From: Escherichia coli
Lineage (GTDB): Bacteria; Pseudomonadota; Gammaproteobacteria; Enterobacterales; Enterobacteriaceae
Length of the DNA: 5,732 nucleotides
Assembly: GCF_030013595.1 (NCBI RefSeq)
Contig: NZ_CP122774.1
Direction: 5' to 3' (one strand)
Position numbers and translations under genes: made by a program. Shown here in pieces: positions 1 to 5,732 of this stretch (position 1 is its first letter; every line of letters starts with the position of its first letter). The notes under the pieces are model-generated. The model was not told the DNA's origin and did no database searches. It worked only from the letters and a program-made list of their open reading frames with translations.

Positions 1-495
1 ATGGCGGGCACAGTATGGCGTGACATAAGAACGGGAGAGACTGTTTTTCCTATGGGGCACCTGCACCCTCAGAGGTGCTGTGTTGATGTAAACGGTACTT
101 CTGTAGATATAGAAATTAGTTTTGGTTTTCATGTTTTTACTGATGAAAAACAAACCGGAATGCTGATGAAATTTAAGGAGGAACAGAGGTTTTTTTGTAG
201 GGAACGCTATGAGGGCAGCAAAACTATCGTTCACAGAATACTTACAGCGATAGAAAACGGTGAATACATTACAGCATTTATTTCAAAGGGGCAGGGGCAG
301 CGGTATTACCATCTTAGCCATCATGATGACTTCATTTTGATGGAAATAAGAAAGCCTCAAGATAGAAATAATTCTTTGCGTATTCATGTTGTTACAGCTT
401 ACACGCTTGATGAATGGGGGACTGTAAATAAAGGACGTAACCTGCGGTTTAGATATGTGCTGGAACAGCGACTGCAGGGAAAGAAGATTGTGTAA
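1..495 (+). CDS. Hypothetical protein, 164 aa, family not recognised; probable distal gene of a two-gene cargo cassette (candidate effector)
   Basis: Uninterrupted ORF from ATG at 1 to TAA at 493-495. A hairpin with flanking A and T tracts follows immediately (496-530). If the window ends are joined, GGAGG (5723-5727) lies 5 nt upstream of this ATG. AT-rich codon usage differs from the mob backbone. No motif I can name with confidence. Confidence 0.6.
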   Translation: MAGTVWRDIRTGETVFPMGHLHPQRCCVDVNGTSVDIEISFGFHVFTDEKQTGMLMKFKEEQRFFCRERYEGSKTIVHRILTAIENGEYITAFISKGQGQRYYHLSHHDDFILMEIRKPQDRNNSLRIHVVTAYTLDEWGTVNKGRNLRFRYVLEQRLQGKKIV

Positions 496-530
496 AAAAC
501 AAAAAGCGCCTAAGGCGCCTTTGTTTTTTG
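496..530 (+). terminator. Rho-independent terminator, potentially bidirectional (A tract, GC hairpin, T tract)
   Basis: GC stem gcgcc (506-510) pairs with ggcgc (514-518) around a taa loop. It is preceded by aaaaaacaaaaa and followed by ctttgtttttt, directly after the stop of the 164-aa ORF. Confidence 0.7.
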
Positions 531-680
531 CAGAATTTCGGTCTGGCCTTTCGTTATCCCGCTCACAGGCTGGGAGGGTGTGACCCCCGGCATCAGCACC
601 CCTCTCTCGAGGTTCCGGTTTGTGCTGACAACATTAGTATCCTATTCCACATGTTCGTTGTCAAACTAGCGTACTTTTTG

Positions 681-1120: not shown

Positions 1121-1227
1121 GTAAACGAAAAAACCACCATGGCAGGTGGTTTTTCGAAGGTTATTTAATCCTGGCAGATTGAATAACCGTGGTAACAGCC
1201 TTGTGCGAGACGTGTCACCAAATCTGT
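1121..1227 (-). ncRNA. RNA I, antisense copy-number and incompatibility regulator
   Basis: It is the complement of the RNA II 5' region. The start aligns with pMB1 ACAGTATTTGG (here the reverse complement of accaaatctgt, ending at 1227). Three hairpins are visible: aaccacc/ggtggtt, ggttatt-aatc/gatt-aataacc, and ggtaaca/tgtcacc with mismatches. Its own promoter lies just upstream on the minus strand. Confidence 0.8.
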
Positions 1228-2018: not shown

Positions 2019-2210
2019 TCAGAGGTTTTCACCGTCATCCCCGAAGCGTGCGAGGCAGCTGCGGTAAAGCTCATCGGCGTGGTCGTGAAGCGATTCACAG
2101 ATGTCTGCCTGTTCATCCGCGTCCAGTTCGTTGAGCTTTTCCAGCAGCGTTAATGTCTGGCTTCTGATAAAGCGGGCCATGTTAAGGGCGGTTTTTTCCT
2201 GTTTAGTCAC
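2019..2210 (-). CDS. rop: Rop/Rom, RNA I-RNA II kissing-complex stabiliser (63 aa)
   Basis: The translation MTKQEKTALNMARFIRSQTLTLLEKLNELDADEQADICESLHDHADELYRSCLARFGDDGENL matches the Rop sequence of pBR322/ColE1 as I remember it. The position (ori, bom, rop convergent with RNA II) is canonical. Confidence 0.95.
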   Translation of the reverse strand: MTKQEKTALNMARFIRSQTLTLLEKLNELDADEQADICESLHDHADELYRSCLARFGDDGENL

Positions 2211-2250: not shown

Positions 2251-2598
2251 ATGATACCGATGAAACGCGAGAGGATGCTCACGATACGGGTTACTGATGA
2301 TGAACATGCACGGTTACTGGAACGCTGTGAGGGTAAACAGCTGGCGGTATGGATGCGGCGGGTCTGTCTGGGTGAGCCGGTTGCCCGTTCCGGGAAGCTG
2401 CCGACACTGGCACCGCCGTTACTGCGCCAGCTGGCTGCCATCGGGAATAATCTGAATCAGACGGCGAGGAAGGTGAACAGCGGGCAGTGGTCTTCCGGTG
2501 ACCGGGTTCAGGTGGTGGCCGCACTGATGGCCATCGAGAGAGAGTTGCGCAGCTTACGGCAGGTCGTCAGGGAACATGGAGCGCGGGATGATAGTTAA
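2251..2598 (+). CDS. mbeC: MbeC, ribbon-helix-helix relaxosome accessory protein (MobC-like)
   Basis: MLTIRVTDDEHARLLERCEGKQLAVWMRRVCLGEPVARSGKLPTLAPPLLRQLAAIGNNLNQTARKVNSG... matches the remembered ColE1 MbeC. The RHH beta-strand LTIRVTDDE is present. Its stop (2596-2598) overlaps the mbeA start. The start is ambiguous: in-frame ATGs occur at 2251, 2260 and 2275. Confidence 0.88.
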   Translation: MIPMKRERMLTIRVTDDEHARLLERCEGKQLAVWMRRVCLGEPVARSGKLPTLAPPLLRQLAAIGNNLNQTARKVNSGQWSSGDRVQVVAALMAIERELRSLRQVVREHGARDDS

Positions 2599-4330
2599 GT
2601 TTCATGCCAGGGGAAAAGGCGGTGGCAGTGGTCCGGTTGATTACCTGCTGGGAAGGGAGCGTAACCGGGAAGGGGCAACGGTGCTTCAGGGTAATCCGGA
2701 AGAAGTCCGGGAACTCATCGATGCCACGCCATTTGCGAAGAAATACACGTCAGGTGTTCTGTCGTTCGCGGAGAAGGAGCTGCCGCCTGGAGGGCGTGAA
2801 AAAGTGATGGCGAGCTTTGAGCGTGTACTGATGCCCGGTCTCGAGAAAAATCAGTACAGCATCCTGTGGGTGGAGCACCAGGACAAGGGACGGCTTGAGC
2901 TGAATTTTGTCATTCCGAACATGGAGCTACAGACCGGAAAACGCCTCCAGCCGTACTACGACCGGGCAGACAGGCCGAGAATTGATGCCTGGCAGACGCT
3001 GGTTAATCACCATTACGGGCTGCATGACCCCAACGCCCCGGAGAACCGCCGGACGCTGACCCTTCCTGATAACCTGCCGGAAACGAAACAGGCGCTTGCA
3101 GAGAGCGTCACACGCGGGATAGACGCTCTTTATCATGTCGGGGAGATAAAAGGCCGTCAGGATGTGATTCAGGCGCTCACAGAGGCAGGGCTTGAAGTGG
3201 TCAGGGTGACGCGAAGCAGTATCAGCATTGCAGACCCGAACGGTGGGAAGAATATCAGGCTGAAAGGAGCATTTTATGAGCAATCTTTTACAGACGGGCG
3301 CGGAGTTCGAGAAAAAGCTGAAAGAGAGAGCCGAATCTACAGAGACAATGCTGAACGACGAGTTCAGCAAGCTCGAAAAATCTGTAAGCAAGGCTGTGAC
3401 ATCAAACGAGACGAAAATCAAAGACGCTATAGCCCTGTTCACAGCTTCGACAGAGGAATCACTGAAAAAACACCGGGAAGGGGTGAAAGAGGCGATGATG
3501 CAGCACAGGAAGGACGTGTTAAAGCTGGCAGGGAATACGGGCATGATGTTACTGGGGATGGTCCTTTTCCTGTTTACCGTGAGTGGCGGGACGCTCTGGT
3601 ATCTTGGCGGGCGGATACAGGCGAACCTGGAAGAAATCAGGATACAGGAAGAAACATTGCAGAAACTGAACGCGAAGACATGGGGCGTGGAGTTTGTGCA
3701 GGACGGGAGAAGGAAATTTCTGGTCATCCCGCAGGGGAAATCGGCAACGGTGATTCCCTATCAGGAGAAGGACTGGGTACAACTGACGGAGTGACACAGA
3801 GTGACGGAGCTGGAAAGACATTTGCTGAACGCCTTAGAGCAACTGCAACAGGACTATATGCAGCGGCTGAGCGAATGGGAGAGCGCCTTCGTGGAATTGC
3901 AGAAAATGTTTTCGCTTACGCAACGGGACAACGCGATGCTGAACGAGCAGGTCATGCAGTTGAGTCAGCAGGTGCAGCACTTGAGCGAGCGGACAGAACG
4001 CTTGAGCCAGTTATACAGCGAGAACAGGAGATAAGGGACGAACGGCTGATACAGGAGCGCGAACATGAGTTATCCCTGGAGCGTGAGCGCCAGCTGGAAA
4101 TACAGGAACGGACACTGGATGGCATGGTAATCAGAGACAGGCTAAAATGTTGTCAGCGCGTTTCCGGTGCATTTTTTGGGATAATGGTTGGTTCGGGGGC
4201 ACCGGGAACGCGCTTCAGTCAGACCTTGCTGAAAACACAGGAACGCGTTAAAACGCATACGGGCGCGATTCTGGTGTGTCTTTTGTTGCTGTGTTTTGCC
4301 TCTATTGCCAGATCGCGCTCATTCCCCTGA
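2588..4330 (+). CDS. mbeA: MbeA, MOB-HEN family conjugative relaxase (580 aa here)
   Basis: MIVKFHARGKGGGSGPVDYLLGRERNREGATVLQGNPEEVRELID... matches the remembered ColE1 MbeA. Catalytic Tyr19 is at 2642-2644. The HEN signature H97, E104 and N106 lies in WVEHQDKGRLELNFVIPN. I prefer ATG 2588 to the track start at 2576 because ColE1 MbeA begins MIVKF. After ...IQERTLDG (about 4115) the C-terminal end diverges from ColE1, so the true stop is less certain. Confidence 0.88.
   Translation: MIVKFHARGKGGGSGPVDYLLGRERNREGATVLQGNPEEVRELIDATPFAKKYTSGVLSFAEKELPPGGREKVMASFERVLMPGLEKNQYSILWVEHQDKGRLELNFVIPNMELQTGKRLQPYYDRADRPRIDAWQTLVNHHYGLHDPNAPENRRTLTLPDNLPETKQALAESVTRGIDALYHVGEIKGRQDVIQALTEAGLEVVRVTRSSISIADPNGGKNIRLKGAFYEQSFTDGRGVREKAERESRIYRDNAERRVQQARKICKQGCDIKRDENQRRYSPVHSFDRGITEKTPGRGERGDDAAQEGRVKAGREYGHDVTGDGPFPVYREWRDALVSWRADTGEPGRNQDTGRNIAETEREDMGRGVCAGREKEISGHPAGEIGNGDSLSGEGLGTTDGVTQSDGAGKTFAERLRATATGLYAAAERMGERLRGIAENVFAYATGQRDAERAGHAVESAGAALERADRTLEPVIQREQEIRDERLIQEREHELSLERERQLEIQERTLDGMVIRDRLKCCQRVSGAFFGIMVGSGAPGTRFSQTLLKTQERVKTHTGAILVCLLLLCFASIARSRSFP
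3276..3794 (+). CDS. mbeB: MbeB mobilisation protein (172 aa), nested out of frame within mbeA
   Basis: The MSNLLQTGAEFEKKLKERAESTE... product has a central hydrophobic segment, MMLLGMVLFLFTVSGGTLWYLGG. This agrees with the remembered ColE1 MbeB. GGAG (3266-3269) lies 6 nt before the ATG. Confidence 0.85.
   Translation: MSNLLQTGAEFEKKLKERAESTETMLNDEFSKLEKSVSKAVTSNETKIKDAIALFTASTEESLKKHREGVKEAMMQHRKDVLKLAGNTGMMLLGMVLFLFTVSGGTLWYLGGRIQANLEEIRIQEETLQKLNAKTWGVEFVQDGRRKFLVIPQGKSATVIPYQEKDWVQLTE
3801..4034 (+). CDS. mbeD: MbeD mobilisation / entry-exclusion-associated protein (77 aa), nested out of frame within mbeA
   Basis: GTG start. MTELERHLLNALEQLQQDYMQRLSEWESAF..LQKMFSLTQRDNA.L... matches the remembered ColE1 MbeD. 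GGAG (3788-3791) lies 9 nt upstream. The gene starts 7 nt after the mbeB stop. Confidence 0.8.
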   Translation: MTELERHLLNALEQLQQDYMQRLSEWESAFVELQKMFSLTQRDNAMLNEQVMQLSQQVQHLSERTERLSQLYSENRR

Positions 4331-4429: not shown

Positions 4430-4577
4430 CATGGCTGCATAGCTATGCATGTGGTTAAAATTTACCGGGTGCGATCGCGGCAGTTTTTCGGGTGGTTTGT
4501 TGCCATTTTTACCTGTCTGCTGCCGTGATCGCACCGAACGCGTTTCTGCGGTGCGGGCAACGGATGTTATGGTAAAT
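4430..4577 (+). other. cer: cer-like XerCD/ArgR/PepA multimer-resolution site
   Basis: Collinear with the remembered ColE1 cer (ggttaaaattta.c.gg.gcgatcgcggcagtttttcgggtggtttgttgccatttttacctgtctgctgccgtgatcgc..gaacgcgttt). The core is a GGTGCGGGCAA XerC arm (4550-4560), a cggatg spacer (4561-4566) and a TTATGGTAAAT XerD arm (4567-4577). The ARG-box-position palindrome TGCATAGCTATGCA (4436-4449) lies about 105 bp upstream. The left boundary is approximate. ColE1 cer also encodes the Rcd RNA, which I cannot map here. Confidence 0.85.
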
Positions 4578-4693
4578 ATTGGTGCTCTGGGATGAAGCGA
4601 AAATAGGCTTTTTTTCGCTATTTTAGCCTGTTCAGGAACGGCAAGAGTAAATATCTGGGAGCATGAAGCTCGTTAACCTGAATGGAGATCCTG

Positions 4694-4858
4694 ATGATGG
4701 ACAAAGATACCACCACCCTAAAACGCACTTTGGCTCATAATCGAGCCTTTAGCGATAATATTAACCGCAGTGGCATAGCCTGGTGCTATAACACTGAGAT
4801 TGTACTCGCTGCTTGTGAGGCGATTGAAGCCGAACTACAACGGCGAGGATGTTTGTAA
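4694..4858 (+). CDS. Small hypothetical protein, 54 aa (below the ORF-track cutoff)
   Basis: Hand translation gives MMDKDTTTLKRTLAHNRAFSDNINRSGIAWCYNTEIVLAACEAIEAELQRRGCL, ending at TAA 4856-4858. GGAG (4684-4687) lies 6 nt before ATG 4694. A strong terminator begins 8 nt after the stop. An in-frame ATG at 4682 is an alternative start. Confidence 0.5.
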   Translation: MMDKDTTTLKRTLAHNRAFSDNINRSGIAWCYNTEIVLAACEAIEAELQRRGCL

Positions 4859-4865
4859 CAATAAG

Positions 4866-4889
4866 AAAACCCGCATCAGCGGGTTTTTT
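4866..4889 (+). terminator. Rho-independent terminator
   Basis: aaaacccgc-atca-gcgggtttttt. The stem is 4866-4874 paired with 4879-4887, the loop is atca, and the T run ends at 4889. Confidence 0.8.
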
Positions 4890-4960
4890 AGTCTCTGAGA
4901 CGCGCTACCGCTAAATTATTTTTCTCTCTATCCGCCCTGGCTTGCCCCCTACAACCCCAT

Positions 4961-5005
4961 GGAGCACAAGGAGCACAGGGAGAACCATCGAGCACAACGA
5001 GCACC
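4961..5005 (+). repeat. Five tandem, phased GAG(C/A)AC(A) repeats (iteron- or operator-like)
   Basis: GAGCAC occurs at 4962, 4971, 4990 and 4999, and GAGAAC at 4980. Spacings are 9, 9, 10 and 9 bp. The array sits in a GC-rich patch immediately 5' of a very AT-rich tract and the wHTH gene. Confidence 0.6.
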
Positions 5006-5054
5006 GCCTTCCTCTTATAAATCATTATTAATCATATAATTAAACAACTTCATT

Positions 5055-5068
5055 GTAATATATATTAC
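5055..5068. repeat. Perfect 14-bp palindrome GTAATATATATTAC in the AT-rich tract
   Basis: The sequence read directly is self-complementary over all 14 bp. A related tgtaat recurs at 5084-5089. Confidence 0.5.
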
Positions 5069-5163
5069 TTTTTATGTTTTTAAATGTAATGTTTATTGCG
5101 ATTTAGCTTGTTTTTAACTCTATTTTTTCAGATGAGAACAAGCTGCCAGCAATGAATAACTAT

Positions 5164-5191
5164 TTGATTTTATTGGTTTTTTCAATAAATT
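5164..5191 (+). promoter_or_regulatory. Putative sigma70 promoter of the wHTH/164-aa cassette
   Basis: -35 TTGATT (5164-5169), 16-bp spacer, -10 TAAATT (5186-5191). The predicted start near 5198 is upstream of the SD GGGAG (5209-5213). In such AT-rich DNA the hexamer matches are weak evidence. Confidence 0.35.
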
Positions 5192-5219
5192 AGTGTCCAT
5201 AGACAAACGGGAGACGACT

Positions 5220-5732
5220 ATGTCCGCAAGAGCAAGAAAAGCAGGTAAGAGAAATCAGTCAGAACGACGTCAGGATTTGATTGAAAAATTGTGGGAAGAC
5301 GACGAAATCGATACTTGGCATCGACTTGAAAATGATGGGTACTCAACAGTTCCACGTTATTTGCCTTTGATAGGCGATCTCATGGATGGTCTGTCAAAAG
5401 GATCACCATTATCAACAACCTACTTGGCTTTATGGTTCAGGGTTTCTGATGAGGGGTTGATTGAAATAAGAGATAAAGCAGCACTGGCTTTTGAATCAGG
5501 GTTCGCTAGTGAAAGAGGCGTAACTACATGGGCAGGGAGAATGAAAAAGCTAAAAGAACTGGGGTTCATATCCTGTCGTGAAGGCAGCACCGGTGAATTT
5601 CATTACGTGTTAATTGTTCACCCATTAGTTGCAGTCAAAAAGCTGCTTGATGAAGGGATTATCCCTAAAGGAAAGACTTATAACATTTTGTCGGAGCGTG
5701 TAATTGAGGTGGGAGCCTCTTGGGAGGGTTAA
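5220..5732 (+). CDS. Winged-helix-turn-helix-like DNA-binding protein, 170 aa (regulator or Rep-like); proximal gene of the cargo cassette
   Basis: GGGAG (5209-5213) lies 6 nt before ATG 5220, which I prefer to the track GTG at 5193. The layout GYSTVPRYLPL..L...LS..STTYLALWFRV(7)IEIRDKAALAFESGFASERGVTTWAGRMKKLKELGFISCREGSTGEFHYVLIVHP is the helix/helix/recognition-helix/beta-wing pattern of MarR-, RepL- and replisome-organiser-type wHTH domains. The N-terminus is basic, MSARARKAGKRNQSERR. The family is not identified. Confidence 0.65.
   Translation: MSARARKAGKRNQSERRQDLIEKLWEDDEIDTWHRLENDGYSTVPRYLPLIGDLMDGLSKGSPLSTTYLALWFRVSDEGLIEIRDKAALAFESGFASERGVTTWAGRMKKLKELGFISCREGSTGEFHYVLIVHPLVAVKKLLDEGIIPKGKTYNILSERVIEVGASWEG

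Follow-up and report, generated by a model that had tools for sequence, protein, structure and literature searches.

Background

Many anti-phage systems carry, just upstream, a small DNA-binding gene that controls their promoter, as described for BrxR/CapW, proteins of winged helix-turn-helix (wHTH)-WYL-WCX type, for CapH with CapP, for CapK with CapS and for RptR (PMC9122601, PMC11662680, PMC13373217, PMC12255303), and BrxR/CapW co-localise with diverse systems (PMC9122601, PMC11662680). Here we examine a 5732-bp stretch of Escherichia coli DNA (contig NZ_CP122774.1; the whole stretch, at its full length, is called the window below) in which an array of short GAGCAC direct repeats stands, at some distance, upstream of a gene for a 170-amino-acid (aa) wHTH protein, here geneA, that is followed by a second gene, geneB. 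Comparison of homologous loci leads us to propose, with a probability of about 0.6, that a two-gene module has this array as its conserved cis-element on the upstream side and that the array would control the operon formed by geneA and a downstream effector gene. By function, the regulators named above are the closest to geneA, with which they share the placement of a small DNA-binding gene upstream. However, the geneA protein, which has no match in Pfam or PADLOC, lacks WYL, WCX or any other sensor domain and is not a member of the WYL family; moreover, whereas the sites of the known regulators lie within the promoter and consist of a palindrome or of a short set of repeats, the site of geneA would consist of six-unit 9-bp direct repeats plus a C-rich box, about 152 bp off the promoter.

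Three other groups of proteins are relevant for comparison. The wHTH domains of OmpR and PhoB bind head-to-tail to direct repeats with a period of about 10-11 bp (six OmpR protomers on F1-F2-F3; the pho boxes), and distal sites of this type act through DNA bending or looping with IHF. If geneA binds the array as we propose, the likeness would lie in tandem winged helices on direct repeats 5' of a promoter, whereas geneA differs in having no receiver domain and no detected sequence relationship to these proteins, in the 9-bp period, and in the location of the array about 150 bp from the promoter in most lineages. Small proteins of the winged-helix or MerR-like type, namely lambda Xis, RdfS and BldC, form cooperative oligomers on short direct repeats (PMC11963761, PMC5859096); geneA would resemble them as a small single-domain protein on direct repeats, but their roles are in excision or development, whereas geneA modules usually have no adjacent recombinase and are coupled to effectors. 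Finally, the hyperpromiscuous antitoxin domains of Panacea/DUF4065 and the NetFlax network are cases in which a single conserved gene on the upstream side has dozens of unrelated toxin or defence domains as its partners (PMC8832971, PMC10440598). The likeness to Panacea/DUF4065 is in the conserved upstream gene with swappable partners; the difference is that there the toxin is bound directly, whereas here the partner changes without a change in geneA, and a conserved DNA array accompanies the gene.

Results and discussion

The array and the geneA family

The window reads, from its sequence, as a complete small ColE1-type mobilisable plasmid, and near-identical plasmids of 5413-5775 bp were found by megablast in E. 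coli, Enterobacter and Klebsiella. The elements of the module in the window are as follows.

4941-4960, plus strand: C-rich box CTTGCCCCCTACAACCCCAT, immediately before the array and without change across diverged plasmid relatives
4961-5005, plus strand: array of five 9-10-bp units with the core GAG(C/A)AC, starting at 4962, 4971, 4980, 4990 and 4999
5006-5155: AT-rich spacer, GC 0.22-0.28, about 151 bp from the last unit to the promoter motif
5055-5068: palindrome GTAATATATATTAC, a candidate dimer operator
5086-5099: second, imperfect palindrome GTAATGTTTATTGC, of which TGTAAT...ATTGC is kept in close relatives
5156-5191, plus strand: promoter-like element ATAACTATTTGATTT, with -35 TTGATT at 5164-5169, a 16-nt T-rich spacer and -10 TAAATT at 5186-5191
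5220-5732, plus strand: geneA, 170-aa winged-helix protein (fold model)
1-495, plus strand: geneB, 164-aa YjaZ-family protein (PF27200), in the effector slot
496-629, minus strand: sraL-like RNA (Rfam RF01408, 84.7 bits) and bidirectional terminator, convergent on geneB

The preliminary description of this DNA, made from the letters alone, had pointed out the five repeats and the order in which they are followed by about 190 bp of AT-rich DNA and the gene for a 170-aa protein. The repeats are real and far beyond chance, and the layout is correct: the protein is modelled as a single wHTH with flanking helices. The last base of geneA is also the last of the window, and geneB begins at base 1, with its ATG (1-3) directly after the geneA stop codon (5730-5732) across the circular junction, and the gap is 1 nt in the near-identical twin contig L015 and in L016 (L numbers designate the loci sampled); on the circle, geneA and geneB make up a predicted single operon.

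Searches of Pfam, NCBIfam, PADLOC and PHROGs with the geneA protein gave nothing usable, and PDB sequences, searched with the single sequence as well as a profile, yielded no match. The family has about 850 cluster representatives (50% identity, E <= 1e-3) among 1.84 billion proteins, and its helix-turn-helix (HTH) residues are invariant or nearly so (ESGF...R..TW..RM, that is, ESGF, R99, T103, W104, R107 and M108). An invariant reading head of this kind fits the invariant GAGCAC site, and we take the array units to be candidate tandem binding sites of the wHTH protein, geneA being the probable array-binding regulator of the operon.

A search with the geneA protein (tblastn) retrieved 164 plasmid records, from Enterobacterales to Rhizobiales, and scanning a single genome from each species brought in another 53 loci, many of them on contigs of 0.2-1.3 Mb that we read as chromosomal; these loci belong to Beta-, Alpha-, Gamma- and Deltaproteobacteria, Nitrospira, Acidobacteriota, Planctomycetota, Verrucomicrobiota and Bacteroidota. 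The sample analysed for arrays comprised 64 loci from many phyla, and an array was called when at least four strict units on the same strand were present upstream of the geneA homologue. It had been suggested at the outset that the same 9-mer arrays be sought upstream of homologues of the wHTH gene; they are present at 46 of the 64 loci. Six is the modal number of units (34 of the 46 array loci), and, of the spacings between units, 112 measure 9 bp, 41 measure 10 bp, 12 measure 11 bp and 11 measure 8 bp. The unit has the consensus a-n-n-G-A-G-C-A-C-a, with each position of G-A-G-C-A-C 86-100% conserved and variable bases between the units. Strict chains are concentrated at the gene, with 31 within 650 bp upstream versus 2 in the remaining ~1 Mb, both strands counted, and one of these two is probably a real array further upstream.

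The plasmids themselves point the same way. In a megablast search with the region, only about 90 bp, namely, the C-rich box and the repeats, was also kept, at ~81% identity, on unrelated plasmids of 3.3-8.8 kb, where this block again precedes a 172-aa homologue of geneA and then a 164-aa gene. This comparison indicates that the array belongs to geneA and not to the plasmid backbone. On the 5' side, a conserved partner (recombinase, ParA or similar) was looked for and the neighbours were found to be heterogeneous: three integrases, two ParA and assorted housekeeping genes, without a pattern. Because the genes 5' of the array are mutually unrelated, we place the module's left edge at the array, and the predicted mobile unit is the block of C-box, array, spacer, promoter, geneA and effector.

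The number of units also differs between close relatives. The array has five units in the window versus six in its near-identical twins (L015; E. coli plasmids of 5775 bp), the 9-bp indel being an extra CGAGCACAC that is present in the twins and missing from the window, so the array is able to gain or lose whole units.

Two P2-like temperate phages, Burkholderia phage Musica (L077) and phage vB_SBP7 (L078), carry the array and geneA near the integrase end, which in P2-like phages is the place of accessory and defence genes; in Musica, the gene after geneA encodes a 428-aa hypothetical protein.

Geometry of the upstream region

The distance from the last unit of the array to the promoter-like motif is quantised. 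The motif starts 151-156 bp after the last unit at 22 loci and 140-142 bp, that is, one helical turn less, at 8; the distance is 137-138 bp in Acidobacteriota, 11-13 bp in a group from Pseudomonas, Burkholderia and Halopseudomonas (the 12-bp class below), and ~13-18 bp in the two P2-like Burkholderia phages. The spacer is conserved in length and poorly so in sequence. Such quantised spacing across phyla, without sequence conservation in between, suggests two sites that need to face each other on the helix, through looping or wrapping of the intervening DNA.

The promoter-like motif itself is well conserved. In an alignment of close relatives (A5), TTGATT, a segment of 16-17 nt with a T-tract, and TAAATT are invariant and are followed by a ribosome-binding site; across lineages, the motif reads (A/G)TAA(C/G)TnnTTGATTT, and a position-weight scan finds it at most loci. 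The sequence YAANNNNTTGATW, an IHF consensus when read on the other strand, fits the 5' part of the motif and occurs exactly in 18 of 46 spacers, compared with 0.4 expected. A sigma-54 promoter, GG-N10-GC downstream of the IHF-like motif, was sought by eye in one set of the sequences and none was found.

Within the spacer, GTAAT-N4-ATTAC lies 161-178 bp 5' of the start codon in the gammaproteobacterial plasmid relatives, as a conserved block of alignment A5, and other lineages have AACTCA-N5-6-TGAGTT at the equivalent mid-spacer place. At the other end of the array, the C-rich box, in the form CCCCCTnnnnACCCCA directly 5' of the array at 4941-4960 in the window, has counterparts at most loci: at 35 of the 46 array loci, the 30 nt that precede the array on its 5' side contain two or more CCC runs, with a C fraction of 0.44 there versus 0.27 in the loci overall. 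The box is always promoter-distal relative to the array and might be a boundary, a nucleation site or the site of another factor.

Several distant homologues (L032, L033, L036, L052, L040, L057, L026 and L030) have long 5' leaders from the promoter motif to geneA, each with two hairpins that have the anti-Shine-Dalgarno-like sequence (C)CUCCAAA in their loops and match no Rfam family; this two-hairpin leader may be a conserved cis-regulatory RNA. The leader in the window, only ~20 nt long, does not have it.

The effector slot

The gene after geneA is hypervariable, with a gap of -9 to +60 bp. The following matches were found for the products encoded downstream of geneA.

YjaZ family (PF27200): the window, L003, L004, L015, L016
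PBECR2: L012
MuF_C: L017
SRAP: L030
Abi_C (HEPN): L032, tested against Pfam; L033, L035, L036, L038, L048 and L052 by near-identical sequence
Abi_2/PD-T4-5/AbiD: L040, tested; L042 by near-identical sequence
DUF3800: L041
Ppl (PHP plus ATPase), 899 aa: L043
Mrr_cat: L047
CAP12/Pycsar-type TIR: L049
ThsB-type TIR: L059
PDC-M34A, then PDC-M34B: L050
SIR2-APAZ, then short pAgo (E 1e-205 and 5e-200; Aga_SIR2, pAgo_I): L057

Other matches of the downstream genes are DUF5343 (with PDC-M34A and PDC-M34B) and PDC-S35. The geneA family thus occupies the position directly upstream of diverse known defence systems that defence regulators have.

In the window, the geneB product has a weak RelE-like fold. 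An sraL-like RNA (RF01408, 85-92 bits) is also present in L003 (1958-2092), L004 (1201-1334) and L016 (3704-3838). In each of the four modules scanned that carry the 164-aa effector, it is directly convergent on the geneB stop codon, and modules with other effectors lack it; it goes with the YjaZ-type cassette and may function there as an antisense element or a terminator. Upstream of yjaZ in E. coli K-12, there is neither an array nor geneA; the convergent small RNA that follows this gene, SroH, is not homologous to the plasmid sraL-like RNA.

A proposed mechanism

We propose the following scheme for control of the operon by the array. About six geneA protomers would bind the 9-bp GAGCAC units cooperatively, head-to-tail, to form a short nucleoprotein filament; with one protomer per 9-bp unit, successive protomers would spiral round the helix. 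A constant, helically phased interval (~152 bp here) would separate the filament from the promoter of the geneA-geneB operon, TTGATT-N16-TAAATT, and the filament would control this promoter through looping or wrapping of the AT-rich spacer, a process in which the palindromes and an IHF-type bend may participate; in the 12-bp class, the filament would abut the promoter directly. The outcome would be tightly set, autoregulated expression of a potentially toxic or defence effector. A cooperative operator of an autoregulated operon had been the alternative offered in the preliminary description, and it is broadly right, lying close to the comparative evidence of array linkage and fixed geometry; the cooperativity and the autoregulation are what we infer from these.

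The regulation could be of either sign. The array of the 12-bp class would cover about -55 to -110, a territory of classical activators such as OmpR or PhoB, whereas the need to silence a toxin argues for repression.

Several observations weigh against control of the operon by the array. Under the strict criteria, no array was found at 18 of the 64 loci, although a relaxed pattern rescues some of these, and for several homologues an effector gene downstream is not obvious. Where the units of a lineage read GATTAC or GATAAC, its recognition helix does not have a clean matching change. The array lies ~190-240 bp 5' of the putative start site, predicted near 5198, which would be unusual for a simple repressor and would require looping or wrapping; the operator could be the palindromes rather than the array; and the scheme gives no role to the C-rich box. 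A simple consensus promoter scanner did not list the promoter at 5156-5191, so the promoter call rests on conservation. Finally, a literature search with incomplete access yielded no paper on the geneA family or the array, nor any results on binding, transcription or phenotype. The family and its architecture, with the array at a distance, accordingly appear undescribed, and a regulator of a defence or toxin operon is, as a kind, familiar.

A bolder version of the scheme, which we offer tentatively and with more doubt than conviction, is that C-box, six-unit array, phased spacer of ~152 bp and wHTH gene constitute a hitherto undescribed chassis shared by many phyla for the expression of plug-in immune or toxin effectors, with HEPN Abi, TIR, Ppl and SIR2-APAZ plus short pAgo among the occupants of the slot, in which the six-protomer filament would poise a wrapped or looped promoter and release it on an infection or stress cue.

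Alternative explanations

Type II toxin-antitoxin systems provide the alternative that survives best, although we consider it rather unlikely. Here, geneA would neutralise geneB by contact, and the array together with the palindromes would be the operator, with toxin-dependent cooperativity. The gene order is as in such systems, bicistronic with the DNA-binding gene first: a small DNA-binding gene and then a small gene for a RelE/BECR-like fold, with stop and start codons adjacent or overlapping. The nuclease-toxin domains PBECR2 and MuF_C in the effector slot of relatives and the plasmid setting are also compatible with it. However, the nearly identical geneA proteins of L003 (YjaZ) and L017 (MuF_C) have the same C-terminus and unrelated effectors, and geneA of the window is 77-79% identical to copies paired with PBECR2; a protein that grips its partner should change with the partner, geneA does not, and a transcriptional role is therefore favoured. 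In addition, the partners include complete SIR2-APAZ/pAgo, PDC-M34A plus PDC-M34B and the 899-aa Ppl, which are not classical toxins, and many homologues have no adjacent partner. A dual role, in which geneA would also be an antitoxin for small BECR-type effectors, is conceivable.

Far less probable is a centromere-like site within a single-protein partition or stability system, in which the wHTH protein would coat the array and the array would double as operator. In pSK1 Par, R388 StbA/stbDRs and TubR/tubC, a small wHTH or HTH binder is encoded immediately behind an array of short direct repeats, and this hallmark layout is matched by the module, which moreover resides on many plasmids. Yet many copies are chromosomal, no NTPase partner is present, and high-copy ColE1 plasmids with a cer site have little need of partition; neither the tight coupling to toxin and defence effectors nor the fixed distance to the promoter, which has no obvious role in partition, fits such a system.

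The preliminary description had itself favoured an iteron-type second replicon, with the repeats as iterons, the AT-rich tract as unwinding element and the 170-aa protein as initiator. Its layout of direct repeats, AT-rich tract and wHTH gene stands, but the replicon does not draw support from the plasmids, the units, the DnaA boxes or the protein, and we regard it as highly improbable. The window qualifies as a ColE1-type replicon, a class marked by an RNAI/RNAII antisense pair, Rom and a cer-type XerCD site, and has the following features.

1125-1226, minus strand: RNAI (Rfam, 77.1 bits)
2019-2210, minus strand: 63-aa open reading frame (ORF) from the ORF list, which we take to be Rom-like by its sequence
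2251-4330: overlapping ORFs, MbeA-D-type mobilisation genes by reading of the ORF list alone
4550-4577: GGTGCGGGCAA-CGGATG-TTATGGTAAAT, presumably a cer-type XerCD core, by the cer core consensus

The window and L003, L004, L005, L008, L010, L011, L016 and L017 all have RNAI, the Acinetobacter plasmid (L007) has RepM, and the Pasteurella plasmid (L006) has a rep-less ColE1-like region, 730 bp of non-coding DNA common to many rep-less Pasteurellaceae plasmids, one of which, at 2.5 kb, is too small to carry the module in addition; among the small plasmids that could be checked, a limited sample, none was found to carry the module without another replicon. Many array-gene pairs are chromosomal, on contigs of 0.2-1.3 Mb. 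Iterons are ~17-22 bp long and usually about two helical turns apart, whereas the units here have a 6-bp core and a length of 9-10 bp. A DnaA box would be expected beside the AT-rich unwinding element, but 4900-5220 contains none, the matches to TTWTNCACA being only at 489-497 and 1698-1706. Rep_3/RepA initiators have two winged-helix domains and ~250-350 aa; geneA encodes a single wHTH of 170 aa, without a match to a Rep family. Also at odds with an origin are the fixed distance from the array to the promoter-like motif and the swappable toxin or defence effector downstream. Iteron plasmids of the Rep_3 type (pSC101, pPS10, R6K) share with the module an order of elements that runs from direct repeats and AT-rich DNA, through a possible IHF site and promoter-proximal inverted repeats, to a wHTH gene, but the module fails the comparison in unit length, in protein architecture, in the DnaA box and in the status of sole replicon, and its likeness to pSC101-type origins is apparently one of layout only.

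Equally hard to credit is that the repeats function as RNA, in a transcribed protein-binding or sponge element or a leader, rather than as DNA sites: the minus strand has consensus promoter-like sites directed into the array (5084-5057 and 5059-5031), there is a bidirectional terminator at 4866-4887, and GGA occurs in three of the five units, but structure in the array region is no better than in shuffled sequences on either strand (z 0.44 and 0.00), no Rfam family is found at the array, the small ORF that spans the repeats in the window is not kept in pIMVS1 (pIMVS1_EHS, 3.4 kb; L003), pIMVS1 has no terminator upstream of its array, and the spacing of 9-10 bp (occasionally 8 or 11) and the phasing with the promoter fit DNA recognition.

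Other features of the plasmids

Between the cer-like core and the array of the window, a 58-aa ORF (4682-4858) is inserted that matches phrog_35409 (E 3e-13, unknown function) and is followed by the bidirectional terminator at 4866-4887; in L003, L004, L009 and L011, the distance from the cer core to the array is only ~60-80 bp. The plasmid in the window has a second layout of direct repeats plus a small HTH gene (675-1070), with the module on one side of it and the RNAII promoter on the other: a GTGTTTATAGGT-like repeat, present in four copies with ~10 bp phasing (675-767), stands directly 5' of a gene for a 100-aa AlpA/excisionase-type HTH protein (768-1070; HTH_17, E 4e-10; Phage_AlpA, E 2e-7). 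This layout is not present in pIMVS1 or p643bA. A separate direct-repeat array of the TACATCAAAAG type, unrelated to the GAGCAC array, is found at 120-250 of pIMVS1_EHS.

Implications

How suicidal immune effectors stay silent and yet ready is an open question, and few families of their regulators are known (WYL/BrxR-CapW, CapH/CapP, CapK/CapS and RptR). The module described here is another candidate, a compact wHTH protein without a family model and with a portable, well-defined cis-site, which ranges from ColE1 plasmids of E. coli to Acidobacteriota, Planctomycetota and two P2-like phages. Its fixed geometry makes the mechanism directly testable, and the conserved array could flag new effector genes in the downstream slot. 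For the E. coli plasmid, the idea of a second replicon independent of Pol I loses its support; a cargo of toxin or abortive-infection type is suggested instead, which may affect plasmid stability or phage resistance. If the poised-filament chassis is real, it would represent a new class of defence regulator or sensor with a portable cis-architecture of its own.
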